From the IMG/VR virus record IMGVR_UViG_3300031566_004355: a stretch of DNA of 20,000 bases; one strand, 5' to 3'. The DNA comes from an uncultured virus (IMG/VR IMGVR_UViG_3300031566_004355). Its lineage: Duplodnaviria > Heunggongvirae > Uroviricota > Caudoviricetes. Positions 3 to 20,000 of this stretch are shown here, piece after piece. Positions within the stretch are counted from its first letter, which is position 1. Each line of letters starts with the position of its first letter. The notes beneath the pieces were generated by a model. The model worked only from the letters and a program-made list of their open reading frames with translations. It was not told the origin of the DNA and searched no databases. Made by a program: the position numbers and the translations under genes.

Positions 3-53
3 GGGCTCGAGTGGTTCTTTGCGGCAGTGAAGAAGGACGCAAATGAAAACTAA
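3..53 (+). CDS. 3' end of an upstream gene (partial; ...GLEWFFAAVKKDANEN*)
   Basis: Frame open from the window edge to TAA at 51-53, overlapping the ATG at 43 as in a coupled operon. Confidence 0.45.
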   Translation, partial: GLEWFFAAVKKDANEN

Positions 54-2154
54 AGTCCTCCTAGGGTTGCTGTTCGTAGGACTGACAGCGATATACTTCC
101 GGTTCGTCATTTGCGCACCGGAAGGCGCATTACTGACTAACCACCTTGCTACTGACTTGTACGGACACTTTGTACACGTATGGGGGAGACTGAACCTCCT
201 CCGAGAGGGATTTATACCCCTGGGGGACTACTGGGTGCTCAGAGGAGGAGGCTTTCCTGCGGCGCTCAATGACCAAGTGATAATGCAGCACGAACTCTTG
301 TTGACGGCAGTGTACACCCTCACCCACAACCTAGAACAGTCTCTGAGAGTACTCATACCCTTCTTCTACCTCGCTACACTTGCGACAGCGTACTGGTATG
401 GCAAGGTACTGTTCAAGCGTACCGACGCGAGCGTAGTACTTGCAGTCGCGTACGCTTTCTGTGCCTATAGTGTCAACCAGCTCGAGCACCTCGAGTTAAT
501 TGGGGTTCAACCTTTCATACTCCTTGCCCTCATATACCTAGAAAAGACTCTCCAGGACCACAGACCCCTACATATCGTGCTAACGGGCCTGTTCCTGCTC
601 TTAGTGGCTACATCTAACATGTACCCACTATACTTCCTGATGCTCTTCATAATCGCACGTTTGTCCTGGCACATTGTATCGTCCCCGCAACGTCTGAAGA
701 CCGCGAAAAGTGCAGCCAAGATTGGCGTAGTCTTCCTAGTAGCTTTGGTGCCCCTAATACTCCCTACTCTCCTCAACATGCCTACGCAGGAAGCAATCGA
801 CGGACGAGGTGCGGCCATAGCAGGATACGCTCAGCCGCCCATACTGTACTTTCTCAGGAACGCTCCCTACGAGCCCTATACAACCGAAACCTATGTCATG
901 TACATGGGAATAGTAGTACTCCTACTTGCTGCAGTACCGATGGTGTTGAGACGCGACCGGAAGGGTCTATACATCTTTCACGTTGCTCTGGCAAGCTTCT
1001 TCATGCTGTACGCCGTAGGACAGTACGGGCCAGTCAATCTAGCATCGTGGATACACGACCACGCTCCTCTTGCATTCTTCATACAGGTACCTGGGAGAGC
1101 TATGGTAATGGGATATTTGAGCCTAGCCGTGTGCGCGGCATATGGCTTCACCCTCATAGCAGACAGACTGCCCAAACATCGATACTTGTTGGTTCTGGTA
1201 GCAGTCGTCGCGATTTTTGCAGACCTCACAATAGGGTTCGAGCATCACACAATGCCGGCGTACTTTCAACCCACGAGTGCCTACGAGTTCGTGGGAAAGC
1301 AACCCGGCGACTTTCGGGTAGTAGAGGTTCCCCTAATACACGGCCAACAAGCAATGACCACAATCTACACCGAACACGATACTGTAGGACCTACCCTCTG
1401 GGCGTTCGGGCTCTTTGCGCCGCTAGAGGCATTCACGACCGAGTACGAGAACTATACTAACAGCGACATCGACGCTTACAGGTCGGCACAGTACAACGTC
1501 CGCTACGTTATAGTAAACACCGACCCGGAGTACTACACAACCTTCGAGAGAGCCCTAGAGGCTCTGAACGGGCCAACTCTAACTGAAGTACAGGAGCTTG
1601 ACAGGACACTTGAAGAGTCTCAAGACTATACTCTGGTCCACAGCAGTTCATACACTAAAGTGTACGAGAACACCGCTTGGCAGGGACTAGTAACATCTGA
1701 GGGAGCCGATTACTTGACCTGGTCACAGTCCAGTCCCAATTGTATTAACATAGACTACAGCAGCGCTCTGCCAACCGTCATTCAAGTGAGCCAGAGTTAC
1801 TCGGAAGGCTGGGTAGCGTCTTCTAACGGTGCGACGTATACGATTGCCAACCTTCAGGGAATACAAGCAATTGCTGTGCCAGAAGGAACGCGTCACGTAA
1901 CACTCCAGTACGTCAACTACACCACGTGGGTCGCGATGGCTTTAGGGTTCTTGGCGGCGCTAGTATGCGCAATACTATGCATTTGGAGGAGGAAACTATG
2001 GCCGGTGCTAATAGCAGTAGGAATAGGACTAACAATCCTAGCGTTCACGATGGTACCACCACTACTGTATCAATATGCCACGTGGGCACTAGGCGGTGCT
2101 TGCATACTCTCAGGAGTATGGCTTTGTATTACACGGGTTGGAGGTTCATCCTAA
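43..2154 (+). CDS. YfhO-like polytopic membrane glycosyltransferase (GT-C fold), 703 aa
   Basis: Many TM segments in the N-terminal ~400 aa with an early Asp (ATDLYGH) and a PGR motif. Then DFRV, YNVRYVIVN, VYEN and a YfhO-type C-terminal beta domain (SPN..I...VSQSYSEGWVASSNG...AIAVPEG.RHVTLQY), followed by further TM helices. Confidence 0.8.
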   Translation: MKTKVLLGLLFVGLTAIYFRFVICAPEGALLTNHLATDLYGHFVHVWGRLNLLREGFIPLGDYWVLRGGGFPAALNDQVIMQHELLLTAVYTLTHNLEQSLRVLIPFFYLATLATAYWYGKVLFKRTDASVVLAVAYAFCAYSVNQLEHLELIGVQPFILLALIYLEKTLQDHRPLHIVLTGLFLLLVATSNMYPLYFLMLFIIARLSWHIVSSPQRLKTAKSAAKIGVVFLVALVPLILPTLLNMPTQEAIDGRGAAIAGYAQPPILYFLRNAPYEPYTTETYVMYMGIVVLLLAAVPMVLRRDRKGLYIFHVALASFFMLYAVGQYGPVNLASWIHDHAPLAFFIQVPGRAMVMGYLSLAVCAAYGFTLIADRLPKHRYLLVLVAVVAIFADLTIGFEHHTMPAYFQPTSAYEFVGKQPGDFRVVEVPLIHGQQAMTTIYTEHDTVGPTLWAFGLFAPLEAFTTEYENYTNSDIDAYRSAQYNVRYVIVNTDPEYYTTFERALEALNGPTLTEVQELDRTLEESQDYTLVHSSSYTKVYENTAWQGLVTSEGADYLTWSQSSPNCINIDYSSALPTVIQVSQSYSEGWVASSNGATYTIANLQGIQAIAVPEGTRHVTLQYVNYTTWVAMALGFLAALVCAILCIWRRKLWPVLIAVGIGLTILAFTMVPPLLYQYATWALGGACILSGVWLCITRVGGSS

Positions 2155-2158
2155 AGCG

Positions 2159-2338
2159 ATGTACACTGCACTTTTTGTGGGGCTCATTTGTGGGGTCGTT
2201 GGTGTATGTGTTGACCTCGACCACGTTATCGCATACTTTCGGAAGCACAGTGGGCGTATTCTCCACCAGTACCTACTCATTGCTAGTATCGTTGTGCTGT
2301 GTTGTCTTATCGCATATCTTGGAGGACTACTTTCTTGA
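2159..2338 (+). CDS. Small 2-TM membrane protein with DLDH...R.LH motif (YdjM-like metal-dependent hydrolase core), 59 aa
   Basis: ATG at 2159 after GGAGGT near 2140. MYTALFVGLICGVVGVCVDLDHVIAYFRKHSGRILHQYLL resembles the PDLDH...HR..TH motif of YdjM-type proteins. Confidence 0.6.
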   Translation: MYTALFVGLICGVVGVCVDLDHVIAYFRKHSGRILHQYLLIASIVVLCCLIAYLGGLLS

Positions 2339-3738
2339 CTGGTTCTAAACTAACAACTCTAGTCGTTGGTGCGGTCGCGTTCGCCTACTACGCGCTCTTG
2401 AGTGCCAAGAGTTACACTTGGGTCTTCGTATCCTACGACTCTGGGGACTGGCTTGCGTGTGCGAACTGGTGGATGGTACCGCAACCTTACGGAAGTCCGT
2501 TGTACATATTACTGTGCAGACTAGTCGGCATGTTTCCGGGAAGCCAGGCCGTTAACATGACACTAATACTTTCGGTACTACCTGCTGCAATCTCGGTAGC
2601 GCTAGTGTATGCCATAACAATCAAGCTGACCGACAGACGACTTATTGCAATAGTGGCCTCTTGCGCGCTTCTAGCTTCGGTAGTAGTGCTCACTCAAGCA
2701 ACCGTAGTAGAGCAGTATTCACTCGCGGTTATGTTCCTCACTCTCGCTCTGTACTTGCGGCTCCAAGGAAGACCTAAACTGACTGCACTGGCACTCGGGT
2801 TCGGCGCCGCAGTGCACATAATAGTACTTCTGGTCGCGGTGTTCTGGTTAGTAGCCGACTACAAGTACTGGCGTAGGAACGTCCGTGCAATCGTTATCGC
2901 GGGCGCGACAATCACAGTCTCCTACAGCTTTATACTAGTCCTAATGGCTATGGACACGCCTAGGCTGCTTGCAGGAGGCCTCAGCGTGACCAATGTACTA
3001 GACTACATAACAACTACTGGGGGCGCTGTAGTAGGCCAGCTAAGCATCTTCGAACTCCCACGGAGGGTTTGGGACATGTTCAGGATATTACTGGTCTCGC
3101 TCGGTCTAACAATAGTACCCATCTACGTCGGGCTTCGCGGCTCTGTACCCTACCTGAAGCCAGCACTACTCGGAACTGTCGCGGCTGCAGTAGGCTACTA
3201 CTTCATATGTGTCGACTATACTACATGGACGTTTCTGGCCTTCGCGGCTCCTAGCCTCGCTATCATAGCTGGTGTAGGACTCAGCAAGCTTCACCCTAAC
3301 CACACTAAGGTAGTACTCGCGGGGTGTATATGCCTCGCAGTGCTCAACGGGGTGTTCATGAACGCTGACGTCCTGACACGTCAGAATCCAGTAGCCCGAG
3401 AGTACTATAACACACTCAAGGGGATGCCCGCAGGTACAACTATCGTCGTTAACGCAGGGTACTACAGTTTGGGTCTATTTTACGCACTAAGCACCGGCTC
3501 GGACCTCGTTCCTATTATCCACCCATACATGGATGATTGGGAGTTCGAGGACTATCGTATGTGGTTGGATGAGACTTATGGCCTCGGGTCCTGGCAGGGC
3601 GCGAACACTACGGACCTGGTCGGACTGGCCTTAATGCGCGACCCCGACGTCTACTTCTTTGGTAACGACCCCGAACTCGAGAAGTGCTTGGAATTCGAAG
3701 AGGTTGGGAACCTCAGAAAGATTGTAGGAGTACGATAG
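2335..3738 (+). CDS. DUF2723 / TMEM260-like membrane glycosyltransferase (GT-C; putative protein O-mannosyltransferase-like), ~467 aa
   Basis: GGAGG at 2321-2325 and TTG start at 2335 overlapping the upstream TGA. YDSGDWLACANWWMVPQPYGSPLYILL matches the DUF2723 pattern DSGE......L..PHPPG.PLY..L. QAT..EQYSL follows, with many TM helices and a soluble C-terminal domain. Confidence 0.8.
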   Translation: MTGSKLTTLVVGAVAFAYYALLSAKSYTWVFVSYDSGDWLACANWWMVPQPYGSPLYILLCRLVGMFPGSQAVNMTLILSVLPAAISVALVYAITIKLTDRRLIAIVASCALLASVVVLTQATVVEQYSLAVMFLTLALYLRLQGRPKLTALALGFGAAVHIIVLLVAVFWLVADYKYWRRNVRAIVIAGATITVSYSFILVLMAMDTPRLLAGGLSVTNVLDYITTTGGAVVGQLSIFELPRRVWDMFRILLVSLGLTIVPIYVGLRGSVPYLKPALLGTVAAAVGYYFICVDYTTWTFLAFAAPSLAIIAGVGLSKLHPNHTKVVLAGCICLAVLNGVFMNADVLTRQNPVAREYYNTLKGMPAGTTIVVNAGYYSLGLFYALSTGSDLVPIIHPYMDDWEFEDYRMWLDETYGLGSWQGANTTDLVGLALMRDPDVYFFGNDPELEKCLEFEEVGNLRKIVGVR

Positions 3739-4028
3739 TGCGAACCAGAACCGCGGTAATAGCATACACAGCCTTAGGAGCCCTCACTGTCGGTGCCTAC
3801 TTCTCTGTAAAGGACTTTCTGGCGTGGCCTACACACCGCTACATCGTAGTGTCGAACGTCACTGTTAGCTACGTCCTAGCACTAATCCTCGTGGGCGTCC
3901 TCAGTCCAAGAATTACTCGAAGAATCTGGCCCAAAGCACCTAAATGGGCTTTTGCAATCGTAGCGGTAGGTCTAGCTCTAGCTGTCGTAGGTATTCTGGA
4001 CCTACTAGGAGCGCCTACGCGACTATAA
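3738..4028 (+). CDS. Hypothetical 3-TM membrane protein, 96 aa
   Basis: AGGAG at 3726-3730, GTG at 3738 overlapping the upstream TAG, three hydrophobic segments. Confidence 0.7.
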   Translation: MRTRTAVIAYTALGALTVGAYFSVKDFLAWPTHRYIVVSNVTVSYVLALILVGVLSPRITRRIWPKAPKWAFAIVAVGLALAVVGILDLLGAPTRL

Positions 4029-4040
4029 TGGAGGTATATT

Positions 4041-4352
4041 ATGGGAGTCTTAGACGGCTTAATGAAGGCGGCTCGGAGCGTACGCTCCAGGCAGCAGTCA
4101 CAGTACTATCGTAGGCTGCAGACGGACACGCGACGCGCCAAAATGGAGCGGGAAAAGGTACGCCTAATACGTAGAGCTAACAAAGAGAAGGACCGTGCGC
4201 GTCGAGAAGCGAAGAGCATGAAGCCCAAGCGTAAGTTCAAGTTCATGGGCGACCTGCGAGAGTTCGCAGGACGCATCCCTAGCGATACAGACCTCAACAA
4301 ATCCATATTCGGCGCAACCTCGCCTAAGCGCCCTAAGGACACACTCCGATGA
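4041..4352 (+). CDS. Basic Arg/Lys-rich helical protein (related to the C-terminal part of 12902..13660)
   Basis: GGAGGT RBS; very basic; ends with LNKSIFGATSP. Confidence 0.8.
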   Translation: MGVLDGLMKAARSVRSRQQSQYYRRLQTDTRRAKMEREKVRLIRRANKEKDRARREAKSMKPKRKFKFMGDLREFAGRIPSDTDLNKSIFGATSPKRPKDTLR

Positions 4353-4525
4353 AGAACAACAAACGACCTGTATTCCGGGTACGATTCAAGGAGATAGGTA
4401 CTGGTCGAGATGGGGGGTTCGGACCTGTCAAATCCTTCAGGACTACGGCACGCGACCCTCAAGCTGCTACACGGAAACTTCGGAAGAAAGGTGTCAGGGT
4501 GCTTTCGGTGCGCCGAGCAAAATGA
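4349..4525 (+). CDS. Small basic protein, 58 aa (not in ORF track); paralog of 7676..7915
   Basis: ATGA overlap with the upstream stop and AAGGA upstream. Translates as MKNNKRPVFRVRFKEIGTGRDGGFGPVKSFRTTARDPQAATRKLRKKGVRVLSVRRAK*. Confidence 0.75.
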   Translation: MKNNKRPVFRVRFKEIGTGRDGGFGPVKSFRTTARDPQAATRKLRKKGVRVLSVRRAK

Positions 4526-4532
4526 GCCTTCC

Positions 4533-4586
4533 CTATCAGGATGTGCTTGCGTTCTGTTGCGGACATATGATATAATGAGGTGTAAT
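4533..4586 (+). promoter_or_regulatory. Promoter P1 (sigma70-type, conserved extended motif)
   Basis: CTATCAGGATGTGC-TTGCGT (4547-4552), 18 bp spacer, TATAAT (4571-4576) with TGn extended -10. Motif shared with 15965 and 18802. Confidence 0.85.
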
Positions 4587-4613: not shown

Positions 4614-4910
4614 ATGTACGAAGATATTGTGAAGCACGCCCCAGCAGCTGCTCGACAGCGTATTCAAATATACGCTGAAAGTGTTGAGGAGGTAGAAGAC
4701 CCTGCCGAGCTCCTTGAAAAGTATGGTGTAAAGGACCTCAAGGAACTTGTTCAGCATCTTGTAGAGTACGAGTCTGGTACGCCCTACGACGTTGGTACTG
4801 ACAAGCTCATCCCGGACTACAAGCTGTTCTGGGAAATGTTGGACAAGGTCTATGGTACTGAGAAGAACGCTGTAGACGAGATACGAAGTAAACAAGGGGG
4901 TAAAATGTGA
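4614..4910 (+). CDS. Hypothetical acidic helical protein
   Basis: First ORF after P1, coupled to the next gene. No obvious SD. Confidence 0.7.
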   Translation: MYEDIVKHAPAAARQRIQIYAESVEEVEDPAELLEKYGVKDLKELVQHLVEYESGTPYDVGTDKLIPDYKLFWEMLDKVYGTEKNAVDEIRSKQGGKM

Positions 4911-5122
4911 GCCTGTACTATAACGAGCGAGCAGCGTTAGCTTTAGCGTTACGTAGACACGTTAATAATGCTCCGGCAAGCGAGTACGACGACGACATGA
5001 AGAAGTATCTAGTCGACCTTATCAACAAGTTCAGAGACCACGGCTATGCAGTCATAGTACACGGCAACGATAAGTTTCAACAGGAAGCATTTGACGAGCT
5101 GCTTAGGCACGCTCTAGAGTAG
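4907..5122 (+). CDS. Hypothetical protein, paralog of 6204..6467
   Basis: AAGGGGGT RBS, GTG start overlapping the upstream stop; 15/27 N-terminal identities with 6204..6467. Confidence 0.8.
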   Translation: MSLYYNERAALALALRRHVNNAPASEYDDDMKKYLVDLINKFRDHGYAVIVHGNDKFQQEAFDELLRHALE

Positions 5123-5134
5123 GAGGTAAGTAAT

Positions 5135-5335
5135 ATGCAACTAGGAATGCGTTCATTCAGAGTATATTGTTCCGAAACAGACCTTGACAAGAACGTTCGT
5201 GCTCTCGACGAAAGCGACGCGCTTAGACAGGCAGGCATAGACCCTACAATGGCTACAGTCGAGAGTGCAGATGGCCACCGAGTCATTCTCAACGTTGAAG
5301 GTAACGCCGTCGTAATTTACGACTCAGGTTACTAG
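5135..5335 (+). CDS. Hypothetical protein
   Basis: AGGAGGT RBS at 5121. Confidence 0.75.
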   Translation: MQLGMRSFRVYCSETDLDKNVRALDESDALRQAGIDPTMATVESADGHRVILNVEGNAVVIYDSGY

Positions 5336-5355
5336 TAAGTAAGGGGGTAAGTAAC

Positions 5356-5637
5356 ATGCCAACAAATCAGAAACGAAAGTCCAAGAAGCCCTACTGGCGA
5401 GAGTTCTCTACCCTTGGTAAAGACCCTACAGACCCACAGGGCATAAGAACGGTAAAGCTTCCAATCTATTACCTGTTCAACACCGAGGGAACTATGCGAG
5501 GCTATGCCCAAGCTAAGGCGAACGGTTCGTGGGTAACTGCTGTAGGTCGTCCGAGTGTGCAAATAAGCAATACTGCTACTACGGCCGAAGAAGCCAAGAA
5601 GCTTATAGAGGACACTATAGCTGAGTGGGGACTATGA
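5356..5637 (+). CDS. Hypothetical protein
   Basis: AAGGGGGT RBS; C-terminal TAEEAKKLIE helix of a kind common in small phage proteins. Confidence 0.75.
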   Translation: MPTNQKRKSKKPYWREFSTLGKDPTDPQGIRTVKLPIYYLFNTEGTMRGYAQAKANGSWVTAVGRPSVQISNTATTAEEAKKLIEDTIAEWGL

Positions 5638-5665
5638 ACTCTGCAGTACAAGGAGGGTTAGTGTT

Positions 5666-5890
5666 ATGAGCGTCACAACACACAAGACAATGAGGTTAAC
5701 GAGGGCGCCTGAGGTCGAGGGACCGAATGTTACTCACACTTGGAACGCGCTCTTCGATACCTACGGCTACGAGACCTTTCATCCAATTGAAGCCTTAGGA
5801 GCCTTACGGGCCACCAGGGGCATCCGGAGAGACGTAGCCGAGGCACAGCTAAACAAACTCGTAGAGCTGGGGCTCGCAACAGCACCCTAG
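5666..5890 (+). CDS. Hypothetical protein, possible winged-helix
   Basis: AAGGAGG RBS; GIRRDVAEAQLNKLVELGL resembles a wHTH recognition helix (weak). Confidence 0.65.
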   Translation: MSVTTHKTMRLTRAPEVEGPNVTHTWNALFDTYGYETFHPIEALGALRATRGIRRDVAEAQLNKLVELGLATAP

Positions 5891-5915
5891 GACATACTCT
5901 GGAACAGGAGATGAG

Positions 5916-6203
5916 ATGGCTAATTCTGCAAGGGTAATAAGAGTCGATGGCTTAGTAACAGACCTCGACCATCGTCCAACCTTGACGGAGGCCCAAGGCA
6001 TAGTCGAGGGCTACCTTGAGCTAGTTAAGGTAAAGGACGCTATGACCGGACACACCGTAACACTAGTCGTAAATGAGGACGGAAAGCCCACGGGACTGCC
6101 AGTCAATTGGGTCGCGACCAACGAGTACGGGGCATTTGTGTCTGGAGGTGTCCTTGTCGGAAATGTTATAGTATTGACCGGCTGGCAGACTGTAGGAAAC
6201 TAG
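5916..6203 (+). CDS. DUF3846-family protein
   Basis: PTLTEAQGIVEGYLELV...LVVNEDGK..GLPVN..AT...LVGNVIVL fits the DUF3846 pattern; AGGAG RBS. Confidence 0.8.
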   Translation: MANSARVIRVDGLVTDLDHRPTLTEAQGIVEGYLELVKVKDAMTGHTVTLVVNEDGKPTGLPVNWVATNEYGAFVSGGVLVGNVIVLTGWQTVGN

Positions 6204-6480: not shown

Positions 6481-6684
6481 ATGACAAAGCTCACACCTGA
6501 AGAAAAGCAAGCACTTCGTACTATAATCGACAATCTCGGCACCACTGTAGCAGACCAGGACGTACTGAAAGACGTCGAGTTCTCGGGTCTTAGCAAAGAC
6601 AGCGCGAAGAGGGTACTTACAGTCTACAAAACGTTGTGCAAGGACCTCCAGAACTGGCTGAACAACGAACTCGATGAGTATTAG
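6481..6684 (+). CDS. Hypothetical small helical protein, 67 aa
   Basis: AAGGAGGT RBS before ATG at 6481 (MTKLTPEEKQAL...). The track start at 6352 overlaps the previous gene. Confidence 0.8.
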   Translation: MTKLTPEEKQALRTIIDNLGTTVADQDVLKDVEFSGLSKDSAKRVLTVYKTLCKDLQNWLNNELDEY

Positions 6685-6739
6685 TATAAGCACCAACACA
6701 TCTGTACTACGCCAACTCCATAGGATGAGGAGGTAACAT

Positions 6740-7054
6740 ATGAACAAGCACCAACGACTCAAAGAGTACGGAATGTACATCCGTAAGAACAGTCGGAGTA
6801 TGTACAACCTCGGCTGGACAGATTCACAACGTCCCGGAGGCCTAGCCGAGTTTCCTACGTGGGACGATGCCTACAATGCGTTCGAGGATACCGTGCTCTG
6901 CTTCTGGGACGCTCGGATGGAAGACTTCCAGACATATATGGAAGAGAGCCTGTACCACGCACAAAAGAGTCCTCAACTAGAAAGGGCTCATACCGAACAC
7001 GAACAGCATCTCGAGGAGTCTCGAAATAAACTGTATGACCTAACGAAGCTATGA
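6740..7054 (+). CDS. Hypothetical protein
   Basis: AGGAGGT RBS; coupled to the next gene by ATGA. Confidence 0.75.
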   Translation: MNKHQRLKEYGMYIRKNSRSMYNLGWTDSQRPGGLAEFPTWDDAYNAFEDTVLCFWDARMEDFQTYMEESLYHAQKSPQLERAHTEHEQHLEESRNKLYDLTKL

Positions 7055-7377
7055 AGCTGTACCATGGTACGACCGATAAGCACATACAAGACATACTACG
7101 TGAGGGACTACAACCACCTTTTGAGGACACTCAGGTGTCCCTTACCGACGACTACGAGCTTGCAGTTTCGTACGCCACCGATGCAGCTAACCTAGCAGGA
7201 GGCAAACCAACCGTCCTGACAGTCTTAGTAAGTCGGGCACGCGAAGGCTACCTTGCAGAATTCGACGTCCCGAGCGTACCTCCTAAGGATATCGTTAAGG
7301 TCGAGCGTGTTCGACCTGTTGCGTCGACAGAGCATACAGAGATTGTGAAGCGCTTAATAGAGAAAAGAGGCGAATGA
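7051..7377 (+). CDS. ADP-ribosyltransferase-fold protein (Tpt1/KptA NAD-binding-lobe-like)
   Basis: LYHGT......ILREGLQP...VSLT....LA..YA...P.VL.V...EF.V..VPP.DI pattern. Confidence 0.7.
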   Translation: MKLYHGTTDKHIQDILREGLQPPFEDTQVSLTDDYELAVSYATDAANLAGGKPTVLTVLVSRAREGYLAEFDVPSVPPKDIVKVERVRPVASTEHTEIVKRLIEKRGE

Positions 7378-7916: not shown

Positions 7917-8183
7917 ATGACTGCAACGCATCCAAACCCTGAGTTTGTGGAGGGTCCGTTCTTCCTACTTGAGTCTACAGTGCATCCGCACATAGGCAAG
8001 CGTGTAGTCATTTGGGCGTCTGACGACTCCGCCGCACGTCAGGTATTTGGCTTCAAACTGGCTCTTCCTCTACCTTACCACATTCTCTCATACCTTGGAG
8101 GCCTCGACGACACTAAAAACTCCCTAAACCTGAGCCAAGCACAGCTCGCAGACCTTTATCGGGACGGATATGTAAGACTATGA
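7917..8183 (+). CDS. Hypothetical protein
   Basis: AAGGAG upstream; coupled to the helicase by ATGA. Confidence 0.7.
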   Translation: MTATHPNPEFVEGPFFLLESTVHPHIGKRVVIWASDDSAARQVFGFKLALPLPYHILSYLGGLDDTKNSLNLSQAQLADLYRDGYVRL

Positions 8184-9619
8184 ACTTCACTAAAGAGCTT
8201 TACCCATACCAACGTGTAGACGTGGACAAGATGAAGTCCCTTCCTAAGTGCTTGAACCGCAATCCTATGGGACTCGGAAAGACCATTGAGGCTCTAGCGC
8301 TTTGTCACGACCTCGACATGCAACACGTGCTCATCGTGTGCAAGAAGAGTCTAGTGGGTGAGTGGTTCTGGCAGACCGAGAGTGTGCTGGGAGAAGGTGC
8401 TCTGACTCCGCATGACAACGGACAATACGACCACAGACTCGCAGGTCTCGACCTGAAGGCTCCGAGGTTCGTAGCCGTGAACTACGACTTGATTGCAATA
8501 CCACAGTACCGAAGTATTTTAACCGCAGTACCTTGGGACTTGGTTATATTCGACGAGGCACATCGCCTCAAGAACTACAGCTCCAAGCGAACTCTCGGAG
8601 CCTATGCACTAACGTACCGAGTGCCGCGAGCTCTGTTTCTTACGGGAACACCAATCCGAAATACTCCCCTCGACCTGTTTCCCCTGTTCCACATGATGAA
8701 CCCTCGTGAGTATACCAGCTGGAAGCGCTGGCGAGACTGGTTCTGTGTCACAGAACGTGAGGAGATATGGCTCAAGAACCCTTACACGGGCAAACCCGCC
8801 CCACGATACATCACGAAAATACTACCCGGAACCAAGAACGAGGAGCAGCTAGCCCAGCTTCTCACCTTATACTCTGTTTACAACGAGAAGTCTGAGGTGA
8901 TGCCTCAACTACCCCCGAAGCAGTACCGTACTATCCCCGTCGAGCTCGGACCTGAGAAGAAGCAATATGAAACCATGCAGGAGGAGTACTTCGCACTTCT
9001 GGACAGCGGCGTCGAGATTACTGCACAGGTAGCAGTCGCACAAATGATGCGACTCCGTCAGATATGCCTCGACCCCAACACACTCCTGCCTGAGCCTCCG
9101 CGAAGTAGCACACCCTCGAACAAGACACTCGCACTGCTCGACGTCATCGACGAGACTGACGGCAAAATCGTCGTGTTTACTTTCTTCGAGAGATACGTGC
9201 AGATACTCACGCAAGAGTTCGACAAGGCGGGTATCAACTACAGAATTATTACTGGCAAGTCCAAGGGTGCACTCAAGGCTGAGCTGGACTTCCAGAACGA
9301 CCCTGCAGTTAAGGTCATACTCGGAACTATAGGAGCTATGGGAGAAGGGTTCACACTAACATCGGCAGATGTAGTAGTGTTTACTGACTCGTTCTGGACT
9401 CCCGCGGTCATTGAACAGTGTGAGGACCGCGTCCACGGAAGAGTGGACAAAGGTCTCGAGTCAATAAAGAACACTCTAGTCATAGACCTATTCTGTCCTG
9501 GTACTGTCGAAGAGCACGTACGCGCAGTCAAGGGAATCAAGGAACGAATGATTACCGAAATCGAATCCCTGGCTCGCGTAGTCGACCGAATGCGAAAAGC
9601 GAGCAGGAGGTTGAGATGA
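8180..9619 (+). CDS. SNF2-family (SF2) helicase/ATPase, 479 aa
   Basis: LYPYQ, PMGLGKT (Walker A), DEAH, LTGTPIRN, LRQIC, KIVVF, GEGFTLTSADVVVF, WTPA..EQCEDRVH. Confidence 0.93.
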   Translation: MNFTKELYPYQRVDVDKMKSLPKCLNRNPMGLGKTIEALALCHDLDMQHVLIVCKKSLVGEWFWQTESVLGEGALTPHDNGQYDHRLAGLDLKAPRFVAVNYDLIAIPQYRSILTAVPWDLVIFDEAHRLKNYSSKRTLGAYALTYRVPRALFLTGTPIRNTPLDLFPLFHMMNPREYTSWKRWRDWFCVTEREEIWLKNPYTGKPAPRYITKILPGTKNEEQLAQLLTLYSVYNEKSEVMPQLPPKQYRTIPVELGPEKKQYETMQEEYFALLDSGVEITAQVAVAQMMRLRQICLDPNTLLPEPPRSSTPSNKTLALLDVIDETDGKIVVFTFFERYVQILTQEFDKAGINYRIITGKSKGALKAELDFQNDPAVKVILGTIGAMGEGFTLTSADVVVFTDSFWTPAVIEQCEDRVHGRVDKGLESIKNTLVIDLFCPGTVEEHVRAVKGIKERMITEIESLARVVDRMRKASRRLR

Positions 9620-9829: not shown

Positions 9830-10516
9830 ATGAAATCGAAGTATCACCATCAACCCTCAGCAATTGAAAGGTCTAGGCGCCGCAAGTACCGACTACCTGC
9901 ATCTCAGGTCAACCCTTTCAAGGTTGAACTCCTTACTGACCGCTTAGGGAACATTGACATGTTCCAGGCAGCAGCTCGAGGCCTAGTACCTCGTCACAAA
10001 TTTCTCGGGCGCACTGACATGTGCATAGTCAAGTACGACGGCCCTCTAGGTGAGTTTCGGTGGTTCGTGGACCCCGTTGAACGGGGGATTGAGCTCCATA
10101 GTGATAGCTCTCCCCAACCTCCCGAGCACCTTACGGCGACCGCAACGAAATACTTCATGTCCACTAGCTACCCCAAACAGATGGTCGGGTGGTATCGTCA
10201 AATTCAAGATGCCGAGAAGCAAGCCTACGCAGGACTGAAATGGGAGACGTGTTCCATCTGCGGGCACGAGTTTCTAAAGGGCACCAAACACGAGCACTTT
10301 GCCAATGAGAGTGGCGTGTGGCCATATCAAGGCACTGAGGAAGTGGCGGCCATTGAAGTGCTGGGCCTGAAACCGAATTGGGGAGCCGGCTATGGTCGAA
10401 AGCGCACCCCAACCTTAGAGAGTGCGGGATTCAGTCCGGAGTGGATGGAGCGCATGGCTGATGACGAGGAGTTCCGCAAGCGCGCCCTAAAGGCTAGGCA
10501 CTATCCGTATCTGTGA
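9830..10516 (+). CDS. Hypothetical protein with a CxxC...H.H motif
   Basis: AAAGGAGGT at 9811-9819 fits the ATG at 9830; CSICGHEF....KHEH. Confidence 0.75.
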   Translation: MKSKYHHQPSAIERSRRRKYRLPASQVNPFKVELLTDRLGNIDMFQAAARGLVPRHKFLGRTDMCIVKYDGPLGEFRWFVDPVERGIELHSDSSPQPPEHLTATATKYFMSTSYPKQMVGWYRQIQDAEKQAYAGLKWETCSICGHEFLKGTKHEHFANESGVWPYQGTEEVAAIEVLGLKPNWGAGYGRKRTPTLESAGFSPEWMERMADDEEFRKRALKARHYPYL

Positions 10517-10524
10517 GGTAAGAT

Positions 10525-11031
10525 ATGAAGACACTAACACGAGTAATGGATTGGGACAAGCTAATCTTCGGTCACTACAACATTGACCAGATTCAGCAAG
10601 CTGTAGCCGACCCAAAGTGGCAGGAGTATCGAACAGAAGCGATAGGTACGTCACTAGAGAGCAAGTACATAGCCCTTCAAGACTGGTTGGAAGATAACAA
10701 TCACTCCGAGCGGGCTAAAATTCAGGTTACTAACTACGTCAACGCACTAAAACGAGGAGGACCCAGCACAGAAGACGTGAAGGAGGTACTAGCAATGTTT
10801 ACATTACAGCACTCTATTCTAGAAGCACTATCCGAAACAATGGATATGATAGAACGTGGCGAGAAGACCTCCGACATCGTTAGTGCACTAGACCGCGACC
10901 ACTCCATTCCACCCACTGACGGCAGGCAACTGGTCACATTCGCATATCACTTGCGCGACAAGCTCCGCGCCTACGACAAGTCTTGGAGCCAACCCAAGGA
11001 CGTGAGAACAAGCCTGCTGGAGGGACGTTAG
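10525..11031 (+). CDS. Hypothetical phage-type protein
   Basis: GAGGT RBS. WQ.YR....G.S...K...L..W...QVTNYVNALKRGG resembles uncharacterised phage proteins from memory (not verified). Confidence 0.75.
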   Translation: MKTLTRVMDWDKLIFGHYNIDQIQQAVADPKWQEYRTEAIGTSLESKYIALQDWLEDNNHSERAKIQVTNYVNALKRGGPSTEDVKEVLAMFTLQHSILEALSETMDMIERGEKTSDIVSALDRDHSIPPTDGRQLVTFAYHLRDKLRAYDKSWSQPKDVRTSLLEGR

Positions 11032-11298: not shown

Positions 11299-11676
11299 AT
11301 GATACAAGCGCCAGCTACAACAGAAGAGTTCGTGATTCGCTTGCATAAGGCGAAACGCGCAGGCACTCACCACGACCTACACTTGAACGGCGAGACCTGG
11401 GCAGTGCCCAGGTTCGTTCCGAAGTCTGTAGGACCGAGGGTGCTGGCAATCAAGACTACTTACCACGGCCCAGAAGAGCGCCGATTCGCGGGCACAATAC
11501 CAGATGGCCAATACGGTGCGGGCACGAGTGAAGTAGTTGAAGAGGGCGAGCTGCAGATTATCGAGAGAACATCCAAGACCATTCTGTTCAAGCTCCTTGG
11601 GGGAATCTTCCGAGGAAACTACTACCTACGCCACTGGACCGGAAACCGTTGGCTGCTATGGAAAACAGCCCGATGA
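11299..11676 (+). CDS. Stand-alone LigD-type 3'-phosphoesterase (PE) domain protein
   Basis: FVIRLHKAKRAGTHHDLHL, WAVPR, LAI.T..H, F.G.IPDGQYGAG, G.Y.L, WLLWK match the LigD PE domain. Confidence 0.88.
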   Translation: MIQAPATTEEFVIRLHKAKRAGTHHDLHLNGETWAVPRFVPKSVGPRVLAIKTTYHGPEERRFAGTIPDGQYGAGTSEVVEEGELQIIERTSKTILFKLLGGIFRGNYYLRHWTGNRWLLWKTAR

Positions 11677-15924: not shown

Positions 15925-15964
15925 GGAGGCAACGCCGTACACTTGCCCACTGCACTAATAATCT

Positions 15965-16018
15965 CTATCATGATGTGCTTGCGACTTTGTGAATGTCCAG
16001 TGTATAATTGGGTATACT
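15965..16018 (+). promoter_or_regulatory. Promoter P2 (same conserved motif)
   Basis: CTATCATGATGTGC-TTGCGA (15979-15984), 18 bp spacer, TATAAT (16003-16008), then TGGGTATACT; lies in an intergenic gap. Confidence 0.85.
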
Positions 16019-18202: not shown

Positions 18203-18844
18203 ATGTTAGAGTATACCTCGTCCAAACAACTAAACTCGGAGAGATTCTTCAGCCACATCAAGCCCGGCCTGATGCACGACCTCGAACTATCAGCGCCGCT
18301 CGACCCTAACAACACATTCTTCTTCAGCGACCCTCACTTCGACCATACTAACATCATAAGGTACTGTAACCGCCCATTTAAGGACGCAGACGAGATGAAC
18401 GAGACGATTCTCCACAACTACCTCGAAGTCGTGAAGCCGGACAGTCTCGTCTTCTTCCTCGGCGACATAGCCTTCGGACGAGGGTCTCGCAAACCTCAGT
18501 GGTGGCTGGCTCAACTCCCAGGTATCATCACCTACATCAAGGGCTCTCACGACCACGGACTACGTCCGACTAACCTCGACAACTGTCACACCAGTCTCAT
18601 ACTCAACACGGGCGTCGGCAAGGTACTACTCATCCACAGTCCCTGGGAAGTCGAGGCACGCAATTGGCAAGGTTGGGTCATCCACGGGCACACTCACTCC
18701 ACCCAAATGGTTGACAGGGAGCATCGAAGGGTGTGTGTGTGTGTGGAGGCGACAGGTTACAGGCCAGTAAGCCTACAACAAATCCGCAACGCCGCTGGTT
18801 TCTGTCAGGATGTACTTGCAAGACAAGACCTGTCTGTGGTATAA
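18203..18844 (+). CDS. Calcineurin-like metallophosphoesterase (phage/AQ1575-like type)
   Basis: SDPHFDH.NII.YC.RPF, FLGD, GSHD (for GNHD), LIH.P, IHGHTH, VCVEATGYRPVSL. Confidence 0.88.
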   Translation: MLEYTSSKQLNSERFFSHIKPGLMHDLELSAPLDPNNTFFFSDPHFDHTNIIRYCNRPFKDADEMNETILHNYLEVVKPDSLVFFLGDIAFGRGSRKPQWWLAQLPGIITYIKGSHDHGLRPTNLDNCHTSLILNTGVGKVLLIHSPWEVEARNWQGWVIHGHTHSTQMVDREHRRVCVCVEATGYRPVSLQQIRNAAGFCQDVLARQDLSVV

Positions 18845-18855
18845 TTGGGTATAAT
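18802..18855 (+). promoter_or_regulatory. Promoter P3 (same conserved motif), inside the 3' end of the phosphoesterase gene
   Basis: CTGTCAGGATGTAC-TTGCAA (18816-18821), 18 bp spacer, TGg-TATAAT (18840-18845), then TGGGTATAAT. Confidence 0.82.
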
Positions 18856-19762: not shown

Positions 19763-19824
19763 GCTCGTAGCCCCCGGTACGTATAACTGAATAACGCGGC
19801 TGGTAGTCAGTACCAGCAAACCCA

Positions 19825-19854
19825 GGAGGCCCGCGCAAGCGGGTCTTCTTTTTT
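19825..19854 (+). terminator. Rho-independent terminator
   Basis: GGAGGCCCGC-GCAA-GCGGGTCTTC: 10-bp stem with two G-U pairs, GNRA loop, followed by TTTTTT. Confidence 0.9.
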
Positions 19855-20000
19855 GCCGTCTCCCGGGGGTTCCTATCAGGCGTTCCCGACGACTTCACCC
19901 GTACACCAGTGAGCTATAGGCACACGAACCTCTCCGAGAGAACCTCTCTGTGCTGCAGGTGTGTGTGGGTGAGAGAGTGCTGAGTGGATGGGTGCCAGGG

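Follow-up and report, generated by a model that had tools for sequence, protein, structure and literature searches.

The stretch of uncultured-virus DNA filed in IMG/VR as IMGVR_UViG_3300031566_004355, whose 20,000 nucleotides were analysed as a whole and are here called the window, opens with four membrane genes followed by a phage-like array of small genes, and so raises the question of what two apparent glycosyltransferases of the GT-C (glycosyltransferase fold C) class are doing on such an element, and whether they belong to it at all. The answer that we favour, with moderate confidence, is that a large island for glycan synthesis and surface glycosylation ends with these four genes, and that it is carried by a mobile element, some 75 kb in size and most probably a phage, of a soil bacterium. 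The genes encode proteins of 703, 59, 467 and 96 amino acids (aa), and the tightly packed block at 43–4028 described in an earlier note on this DNA is real: all four lie on the + strand, each has conserved homologues, and the junctions either overlap or are 4 nt long, the TTG start of the 467-aa gene overlapping the TGA of the 59-aa gene and the GTG start of the 96-aa gene overlapping the TAG of the 467-aa gene. Relatives of the 703-aa protein were found in 21 metagenome loci, and related loci are cited below by their L numbers; L015 and L016 are near-identical and count as one lineage.

Both large proteins adopt the GT-C fold, as the earlier note had supposed, their AlphaFold2 models being matched to solved GT-C enzymes with Foldseek and VIA-align. 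In the model of the 703-aa protein (predicted local distance difference test (pLDDT) 80.6, predicted template-modelling score (pTM) 0.82) a core of many membrane-spanning helices at the N-terminus is followed by an extracytoplasmic beta-sandwich at about residues 486–623 and by two or three further membrane helices at the C-terminus. Foldseek returned 29 matches in the PDB at E≤1e-3, with GT-C enzymes throughout among the matches listed and a probability of 1.00 for STT3, DPY19, AftD, PglB and ArnT; the matches listed for this model and that of the 467-aa protein comprise STT3, PglB, AglB, DPY19, AftA/D, ArnT, ALG and PMT enzymes. VIA-align superposes the 703-aa model on STT3 with Z 25.2 over 454 residues (root-mean-square deviation 4.9) and on AftD with Z 22.0 over 572 residues, spanning positions 3–650. 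The closest predicted structures in an Atlas search are those of a cluster made up to 89 % of YfhO proteins (template-modelling score (TM-score) 0.77 over 617 residues).

The sequence relationships of the 703-aa protein are more distant. It has no Pfam match even at E≤10, and hence none to PF09586 or STT3, and none in PHROG; NCBIfam returned no match for any of the four membrane proteins. A search of 5.8 billion clusters gave a close family of 20 proteins, and in an exhaustive profile search 51 cluster representatives passed E≤1e-30 and 1421 passed E≤1e-10. When 57 of the 150 listed profile hits were scanned with Pfam, YfhO was recognized in only one of the 20 closest but in 28 of the 37 more distant. 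The homologue in L013 scores 24.5 bits with PF09586, for which the gathering score is 28.5 bits, and a precomputed match is present in one of 20 homologues. The 703-aa protein is thus a separate branch of the YfhO superfamily that lies outside Pfam YfhO membership, so that the label 'YfhO-like' holds for superfamily kinship, as seen in fold, profile and structural match, but not for the Pfam family itself. Neither WWD nor W[WYF]DxG is found in any of the 20 family members, WWDxG being what we take to be the motif of the oligosaccharyltransferase extracytoplasmic domain. Residues D38, D62, E148, E167, R206, R352 and D394 are conserved in the family, and the first two (each in 95 % of 20 sequences) are placed in the first loop, between the first two membrane helices of the model. 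We note separately that L005, L006, L017 and L019/L020 encode one or two paralogues of this protein, 800–1140 aa long and most with a LamG (Laminin_G_3) insert, which stand in tandem in L006 (7900–14600) and L019/L020 (6500–12400).

The 467-aa protein, which is of the same length in the gene call on record, had been described as DUF2723-like. Its own score with PF11028 is 23.3 bits (E 6e-5, model positions 1–168 of 179), just short of the cut-off of 24.2, but the family link is nevertheless clear, since 62 of 83 homologues carry PF11028, and the orthologue in L016 reaches 32.2 bits. We know of no bacterial member of the TMEM260/DUF2723 group that has been characterized. The model (pLDDT 92.8, pTM 0.92) has 30 PDB matches at E≤1e-3, the best being ArnT (TM-score 0.63, E 2.4e-6), and in the Atlas it aligns to predicted structures of TMEM260-like clusters with TM-scores of 0.78–0.86. 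The conserved residues of this family are D35, D38, E126, H161, R244 and D294, of which D35 (98 %) and D38 (94 %), among 53 sequences, again fall between the first two membrane helices. Judged from alignments and models, the conserved charged residues of both families lie where GT-C catalytic residues are expected. In L001 the DUF2723-like gene (4668–6130) is split over two frames, which reflects either a frameshift or an assembly error.

Each of the two large genes is followed by a gene for a very small membrane protein, and this pairing of each GT-C with a micro-protein gene of its own is a new observation. The 59-aa protein is encoded directly 3′ of the 703-type gene in the window, L015/L016, L002 and L003, and 2.6 kb downstream of it in L008/L009; in the window its gene has an ATG start with GGAGG 13 nt upstream. 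Five aligned sequences share C11, G12, G15, D19, D21, H22, H36 and Y53-L54-G55, including a D-x-D-H motif. A search for longer, fused forms found none, which is weak evidence. The 96-aa protein, with S39-N40, T42 and Y45-V46-L47 invariant (four aligned sequences, and a fifth lineage detected by tblastn), is encoded directly 3′ of the DUF2723-like gene in the window, L015/L016, L007, L014 and L013, and the pairing is kept in L007, L013 and L014, where about 9 kb separate the 467/96-type pair from the 703-type gene downstream of it. Neither small protein matches a Pfam or PHROG family. Since the 59-aa protein tracks the 703-type enzyme and the 96-aa protein tracks the 467-type enzyme, the conserved units are two enzyme-plus-micro-protein pairs. 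The complete four-gene order, whose recurrence the earlier note had proposed to test, is found again in the single L015/L016 lineage, whereas elsewhere the pairs stand apart. On these sequence grounds the two small proteins are putative accessory subunits of the GT-C enzymes.

The window itself begins at the first GT-C gene, and what lies upstream has to be read from its relatives; a public assembly contig reaches 10,175 bases beyond the left end of the window. The C-terminal peptide GLEWFFAAVKKDANEN, encoded at the very left end of the window, matches the C-termini of the methyltransferases (Pfam Methyltransf_11) that precede the 703-type gene in L016, L002, L013, L007 and L014. In the relatives this methyltransferase gene closes a glycan cluster of 8–10 kb, and the 703-type gene is the last gene of the cluster in L002, L007, L011, L013, L014 and L015/L016. 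A fixed trio adjoins it, encoding a radical SAM/SPASM protein, a glycosyltransferase of family 4 (GT4) and the methyltransferase. The remainder of the cluster includes a PMM-like mutase, nucleotidyltransferases, epimerases/dehydratases, a GNAT protein and a cytidylyltransferase with a cupin domain of the mannose-6-phosphate-isomerase type, together with DPM1/GtrB-like glycosyltransferases of family 2 (GT2), GT2 domains fused to GtrA, or free GtrA. The GT2 polyprenyl-phosphate sugar synthase and GtrA flippase that the earlier note had proposed to look for upstream are therefore present in the relatives by Pfam and by NCBIfam scores, at a distance of 5–9 kb upstream in L016, L007 and L009; the best NCBIfam scores of these GT2s are to AglJ, dolichyl-phosphate hexose transferase, PpgS and ArnC, and none of these scores reaches its equivalog cut-off. 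In five clusters a conserved protein of about 263 aa with several membrane helices is encoded beside GtrA or the GT2–GtrA fusion, and it matches nothing in Pfam, PHROG or NCBIfam.

To the right of the four membrane genes lie 43 further small open reading frames (ORFs) on the same strand, giving a one-strand array of 47 ORFs (three start codons are approximate) with a median length of 93 aa and 93 % of the window coding. A GGAGG-type site is located within 20 nt upstream of 38 of the 47. Three promoters (4530–4576, 15962–16008 and 18799–18845) share one layout, consisting of a 17-nt upstream motif with the consensus TCyCTATCAGGATGTGC, a TTGC-type −35 element, an 18-nt spacer and a perfect TATAAT, and the upstream motif is found also in the closest relative, L015, at 13546 and 19975; it may be an operator or recognition element for a regulator encoded by the element. 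No tRNA or Rfam family was detected in the window. The element backbone includes an SNF2-family helicase with homologues (38–57 % identity) in L007, L014 and L015/L016, whose best phage match is to Bacillus siphophages (32.5 % identity), and a metallophosphoesterase (phrog_547) that matches 992 phage records; there is also a match to phrog_3777. Two related contigs are 75,732 and 74,728 bp long.

Whether this element is a virus is a matter of inference, and several observations, of which those bearing on the junction with the glycan genes are taken up further below, weigh against the reading given at the outset. With about 30 kb of the roughly 75 kb of the element in view, no member of any capsid, portal, terminase, tail, integrase or lysis family turned up among the 47 proteins of the window or among 101 from related loci, and PHROG matches are limited to six of the 47 and three of the 101, none of them with virion or packaging functions. 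Relatives of the two GT-Cs were absent from scans of IMG/VR, and those of the 703 family also from a scan of genome contigs, these scans resting on two or three peptide patterns that can miss relatives. The helicase alignment led to 80 IMG/VR loci, the best with 35 % identity and none with a second gene of the window. By tblastn neither GT-C has a match in 50,697 phage records, and a library of viral structures yielded a handful of loosely similar GT-C folds (best TM-score 0.45, two matches at E≤1e-3). These absences, and the occurrence of SNF2 helicases and phosphoesterases outside phages as well, would suit a mobile but non-viral element, such as a plasmid, an integrative element or another extrachromosomal replicon, on which the glycosylation island serves the benefit of the host. 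We regard this as unlikely, since no relaxase, type IV secretion or partition genes are seen, neither GT-C has a tblastn match in 72,556 plasmid records, and phage genomes typically show such gene density, tiny ORFs on one strand, recurrent strong promoters and inserts of the HNH/endonuclease VII kind; moreover, the sequence in view is less than half of the element. What stands of the suggestion that the system is virus-encoded is a phage-like element, by its gene layout, phrog_62 and phrog_547, whereas virion and packaging genes are missing from the proteins just listed; on balance the element is probably a virus.

A different possibility is that the four genes are a chromosomal envelope operon of the host and that a prophage or other element starts at about 4030–4530. 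The details of the junction bear directly on this. The gap between the 96-aa gene and the first gene of the array is 12 nt long and contains the ribosome-binding site of that gene, which encodes a basic protein of 103 aa with a related basic protein in the same position in L002, L011 and L013. The next gene encodes a very basic protein of 58 aa that matches no family, with homologues (tblastn, 45–60 % identity) just 3′ of the GT-C block in L002, L007, L013, L014 and L015/L016. Altogether the GT-C block stands directly before the basic-protein genes of the element in seven of the 21 loci (L002, L007, L011, L013, L014, L015 and L016; in L014 only the 58-aa gene was detected, by tblastn), which represent six lineages, or seven when the window is counted. 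In L002, L007 and L013 the gene that follows overlaps the block, and the helicase or other array genes follow in L007, L013, L014 and L015/L016, so that with the window five of the seven lineages show them. The junction is kept even though the seven lineages are only 40–60 % identical in their proteins, with a range of 35–67 % for identities to the window. The G+C content is even across it (0.50–0.53), and no tRNA, integrase or att-like repeat was found either in the window or in those related loci that were inspected. The glycan cluster of L014 contains an HNH/endonuclease VII gene. The glycosylation island and the element backbone are thus physically linked, and the GT-C genes belong to the phage-like element that the earlier note proposed and not to an adjoining host operon.

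The points on the other side begin with the core module (epimerase, nucleoside triphosphate (NTP) transferase, radical SAM/SPASM, GT4 and 703-type GT-C), which occurs also in loci that lack the small-gene array (L005, L006, L017 and L019/L020), with a GT2 in some of them; the locus L019/L020 is on an 844-kb contig beside a gene for a P-type ATPase. Clusters of cellular type with the same core module therefore exist, and these genes are not specific to the element. The task of the cluster may be to synthesize a glycan as well as to modify it, and no element genes were seen on its far upstream side. In addition, the promoter at 4547–4576 begins a separate transcription unit just 3′ of the GT-C block, and there is a shift in AT skew near 4000, although this is accounted for by the codon content of membrane-protein genes. 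Set against a junction kept in seven lineages, with overlapping starts in L002, L007 and L013, the even G+C content and the lack of a tRNA, integrase or att-like repeat, these points leave a boundary between host and element at 4030–4530 very unlikely. Cellular glycan loci were probably the source of the island, or its partners in exchange.

For donors, acceptors, partner binding and biological role we infer the following scheme. The nucleotidyltransferases, epimerases/dehydratases, PMM-like mutase, radical SAM/SPASM protein, GT4 and methyltransferase encoded upstream would make and tailor an activated sugar, which the GtrB/DPM1-like GT2s would load onto polyprenyl phosphate and the GtrA-type modules would flip outward. 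At the outer face of the membrane the two GT-Cs, each with its small membrane protein, would then transfer the lipid-linked sugar or sugars to an acceptor in the host envelope; the use of a polyprenyl-phosphate-linked donor by both enzymes is predicted from the GT2 and GtrA genes of related loci. The presence of two GT2s and two GT-Cs suggests two donors and two transfer steps. The 703-aa enzyme with its beta-sandwich would probably act on a polymer or glycan, an acceptor type to which the modelled sandwich and the LamG insert of relatives both point, and the TMEM260-like 467-aa enzyme might add a second, different residue. The pay-off for the element would probably be a changed cell surface that masks the receptor or excludes superinfecting phages, as happens in phage seroconversion, and masking of the receptor seems the most economical role. 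Hypermodification of DNA by the upstream sugar enzymes was considered and rejected, since the site of action of membrane GT-C enzymes is extracytoplasmic. No observation favours a membrane-containing virion, nor protein O-mannosylation specifically. That the system glycosylates the particle of the element itself, for example the envelope or surface proteins of a membrane-containing virion, is most improbable, for although TMEM260 is an animal protein O-mannosyltransferase according to PMC10214176, no virion genes of any kind were seen, the known phage GT-C systems as outlined in PMC11127046 modify host glycans, and the 703-type enzymes have domains of carbohydrate-binding type (the beta-sandwich, and LamG in relatives).

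Returning to glycosylation of the host surface, we put forward only tentatively a more specific version, namely that there is a lineage of phages, about 75 kb in size and with uncultured bacteria as hosts, that encodes a self-contained pathway with two donors and two GT-Cs, one YfhO/oligosaccharyltransferase-like and one TMEM260-like, each needing a dedicated micro-subunit of an undescribed family, and that re-coats a structure of the host surface (S-layer, wall polymer or pili) to block rival phages. If this were true it would provide the first viral TMEM260-type enzyme and the first viral system with two GT-Cs; no virus-encoded YfhO-like or TMEM260-like enzyme was found in the literature, with subscription journals outside the coverage. 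Seroconversion borne by mobile elements is known mainly from three-gene cassettes of enterobacterial phages, and here a whole pathway for making and attaching the sugar is seen, with two GT-Cs from families barely studied in bacteria. With the 59-aa (D-x-D-H) and 96-aa (SN-T--YVL) proteins there are two specific candidates for the role of accessory subunit to a GT-C enzyme, and the system is compact and expressible enough to be useful for learning what bacterial TMEM260-like and YfhO-like enzymes do.

The host appears to be a bacterium, to judge from sigma-70-type promoters, Shine–Dalgarno sites, a terminator with hairpin and T-run, and a lipobox protein in L016. DNA of the element is present in six sequencing runs labelled as soil metagenome, with no RNA run listed among those that contain it. 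A DUF2723-like relative is located on a contig (L001) binned to a metagenome-assembled genome of Dehalococcoidales, but despite this Chloroflexota are not supported as the home of the element: among 401 Chloroflexota genomes the 703 family has two weak matches (E about 1e-11), the 467 family matches 46 genomes of which only G001 is close, and the helicase finds only long cellular SNF2 proteins (≤186 bits). The neighbours of the 703-aa protein in the sequence features of the Atlas are labelled mostly Levyibacteriota and Woeseibacteriota, which is a lead only.

Table 1. Features of the window and of related loci (positions in related loci are preceded by the locus number)
Feature	Position	Strand	Basis
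S-adenosylmethionine-dependent methyltransferase, 3′ end	3..53	+	Last 16 codons and stop, GLEWFFAAVKKDANEN, frame 3; overlaps start of 703-aa gene
703-aa GT-C-fold glycosyltransferase, YfhO-superfamily-like	43..2154	+	AlphaFold2 model, Foldseek, VIA-align, Atlas, profile search
59-aa protein with two membrane helices, putative partner of 703-type GT-C	2159..2338	+	Invariant residues, gene adjacency
467-aa GT-C-fold glycosyltransferase, TMEM260/DUF2723-like	2335..3738	+	PF11028 near cut-off, AlphaFold2, Foldseek, Atlas
96-aa protein, about three membrane helices, putative partner of 467-type GT-C	3738..4028	+	Gene adjacency, invariant residues
103-aa basic protein, first gene after GT-C block	4041..4352	+	Own GGAGG; homologue with 37 % identity in L015
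58-aa very basic protein, marker of the element lineage	4349..4525	+	tblastn homologues
Promoter opening the small-gene array	4530..4576	+	Shared upstream motif; −35 TTGCGT 4547–4552, 18-nt spacer, −10 TATAAT 4571–4576
RNA 2′-phosphotransferase-like N-terminus (weak)	7051–7377	+	phrog_5470, E 1e-4
SNF2-family helicase, element backbone	8180..9619	+	Pfam SNF2-rel_dom 7e-31; phrog_62 8e-83
LigD 3′-phosphoesterase domain	11299–11676	+	E 5e-12
Metallophosphoesterase	18203–18844	+	phrog_547, E 3e-41
Terminator closing the one-strand array	19824..19849	+	Hairpin, 11-pair stem, 7 G–C pairs, then TTTTTT
Endonuclease VII/HNH gene within glycan cluster	L014 1665–2330		phrog_1035, E 1.5e-25
TnpB/Cas12f-like gene	L009 10023–11126		Cas12f1-like TNB domain, E 1.5e-20; just after glycan cluster and 59-aa-type gene
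Protein of about 263 aa, several membrane helices	L016 4319–5110; L007 2038–3297; L013 805–1683; L014 2327–3118; L009 462–1268		

Some further features of the element may be recorded here. The extremely basic 58-aa protein could bind nucleic acid, and the three enzymes of end-processing type in the array (the phosphotransferase-like protein, the LigD domain and the metallophosphoesterase) may be a set for nucleic-acid repair or counter-defence. In public assemblies two contigs, the window's own of 9,188 bases and another of 44,207 bases and equal depth, enter the same 30-mer at 19909–19938, which suggests that this sequence is present twice in the element; the assembly pieces total about 74.3 kb, compared with the contig of 75.7 kb. 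At 10494–10744 some contigs have 249 bases swapped for 445 others, and in one run 264 bases are skipped at 6488–6753, and these assembly bubbles suggest that strain variants of the element coexist in the same soils.

How the system relates to those already known can be considered for each in turn. The nearest solved structures to the 703-aa model are STT3, PglB and AglB (Z 19–25 over about 450 residues, the extracytoplasmic domain included), although identity is about 12 %, the WWDxG motif is missing and there is no Pfam STT3 match at E≤10. The 467-aa protein resembles TMEM260, its N-terminal domain matching PF11028 and its model aligning well to predicted structures of TMEM260-like clusters, but it is 467 aa long, lacks the tetratricopeptide-repeat part and falls 0.9 bits under the Pfam cut-off; activity as a protein O-mannosyltransferase is known only from the animal enzyme, human TMEM260 (PMC10214176). 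In the Agl pathway of Haloferax volcanii, as described in PMC3871713, AglB transfers a tetrasaccharide from its lipid carrier, after which AglS attaches mannose supplied by a second carrier, with a GT2 (AglJ/AglD), the methyltransferase AglP, the nucleotidyltransferase AglF and a flippase-associated protein among the further parts. The two proposed lipid-linked donors, the two predicted outward-facing transferases and the best scores of the L016 GT2s, which are against AglJ, recall that pathway, whereas the expression signals of the window are all bacterial, WWDxG occurs in none of the 20 proteins of the 703 family and the NCBIfam scores are far below the equivalog cut-offs; the resemblance is one of logic only and not of membership.

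A further known system is the CsbB–GtcA–YfhO system of teichoic acid glycosylation in Firmicutes, in which, as outlined in PMC8035078, a YfhO GT-C with an extracytoplasmic domain works with a GT2 and a GtrA-family protein. The 703-aa protein shares such a domain, and its distant relatives are YfhO proteins, but it has no PF09586 match; the Firmicutes system is encoded on the chromosome and has just one GT-C, for which no small partner has been described, unlike that of the window. The logic is also that of the gtrABC cassettes of Shigella and Salmonella phages, which are likewise borne on mobile elements and in which, according to PMC11127046, a polyprenyl-phosphate sugar synthase of the GT2 family and the flippase GtrA work together with a GT-C transferase whose reaction is extracytoplasmic; a GT2 and GtrA are present in the relatives of the window. 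Here, by contrast, there are two GT-Cs, of other families and with no sequence match in the phage records searched, each is accompanied by a micro-protein of its own, neither an integrase nor an att site is nearby, the host is not an enterobacterium, and the GT-Cs are embedded in a cluster of 8–10 kb that also makes and tailors the sugar. Extracytoplasmic glycosylation borne by mobile elements is well known as a principle, and we regard the present system as an element-borne, expanded Gtr-like form of surface glycosylation.

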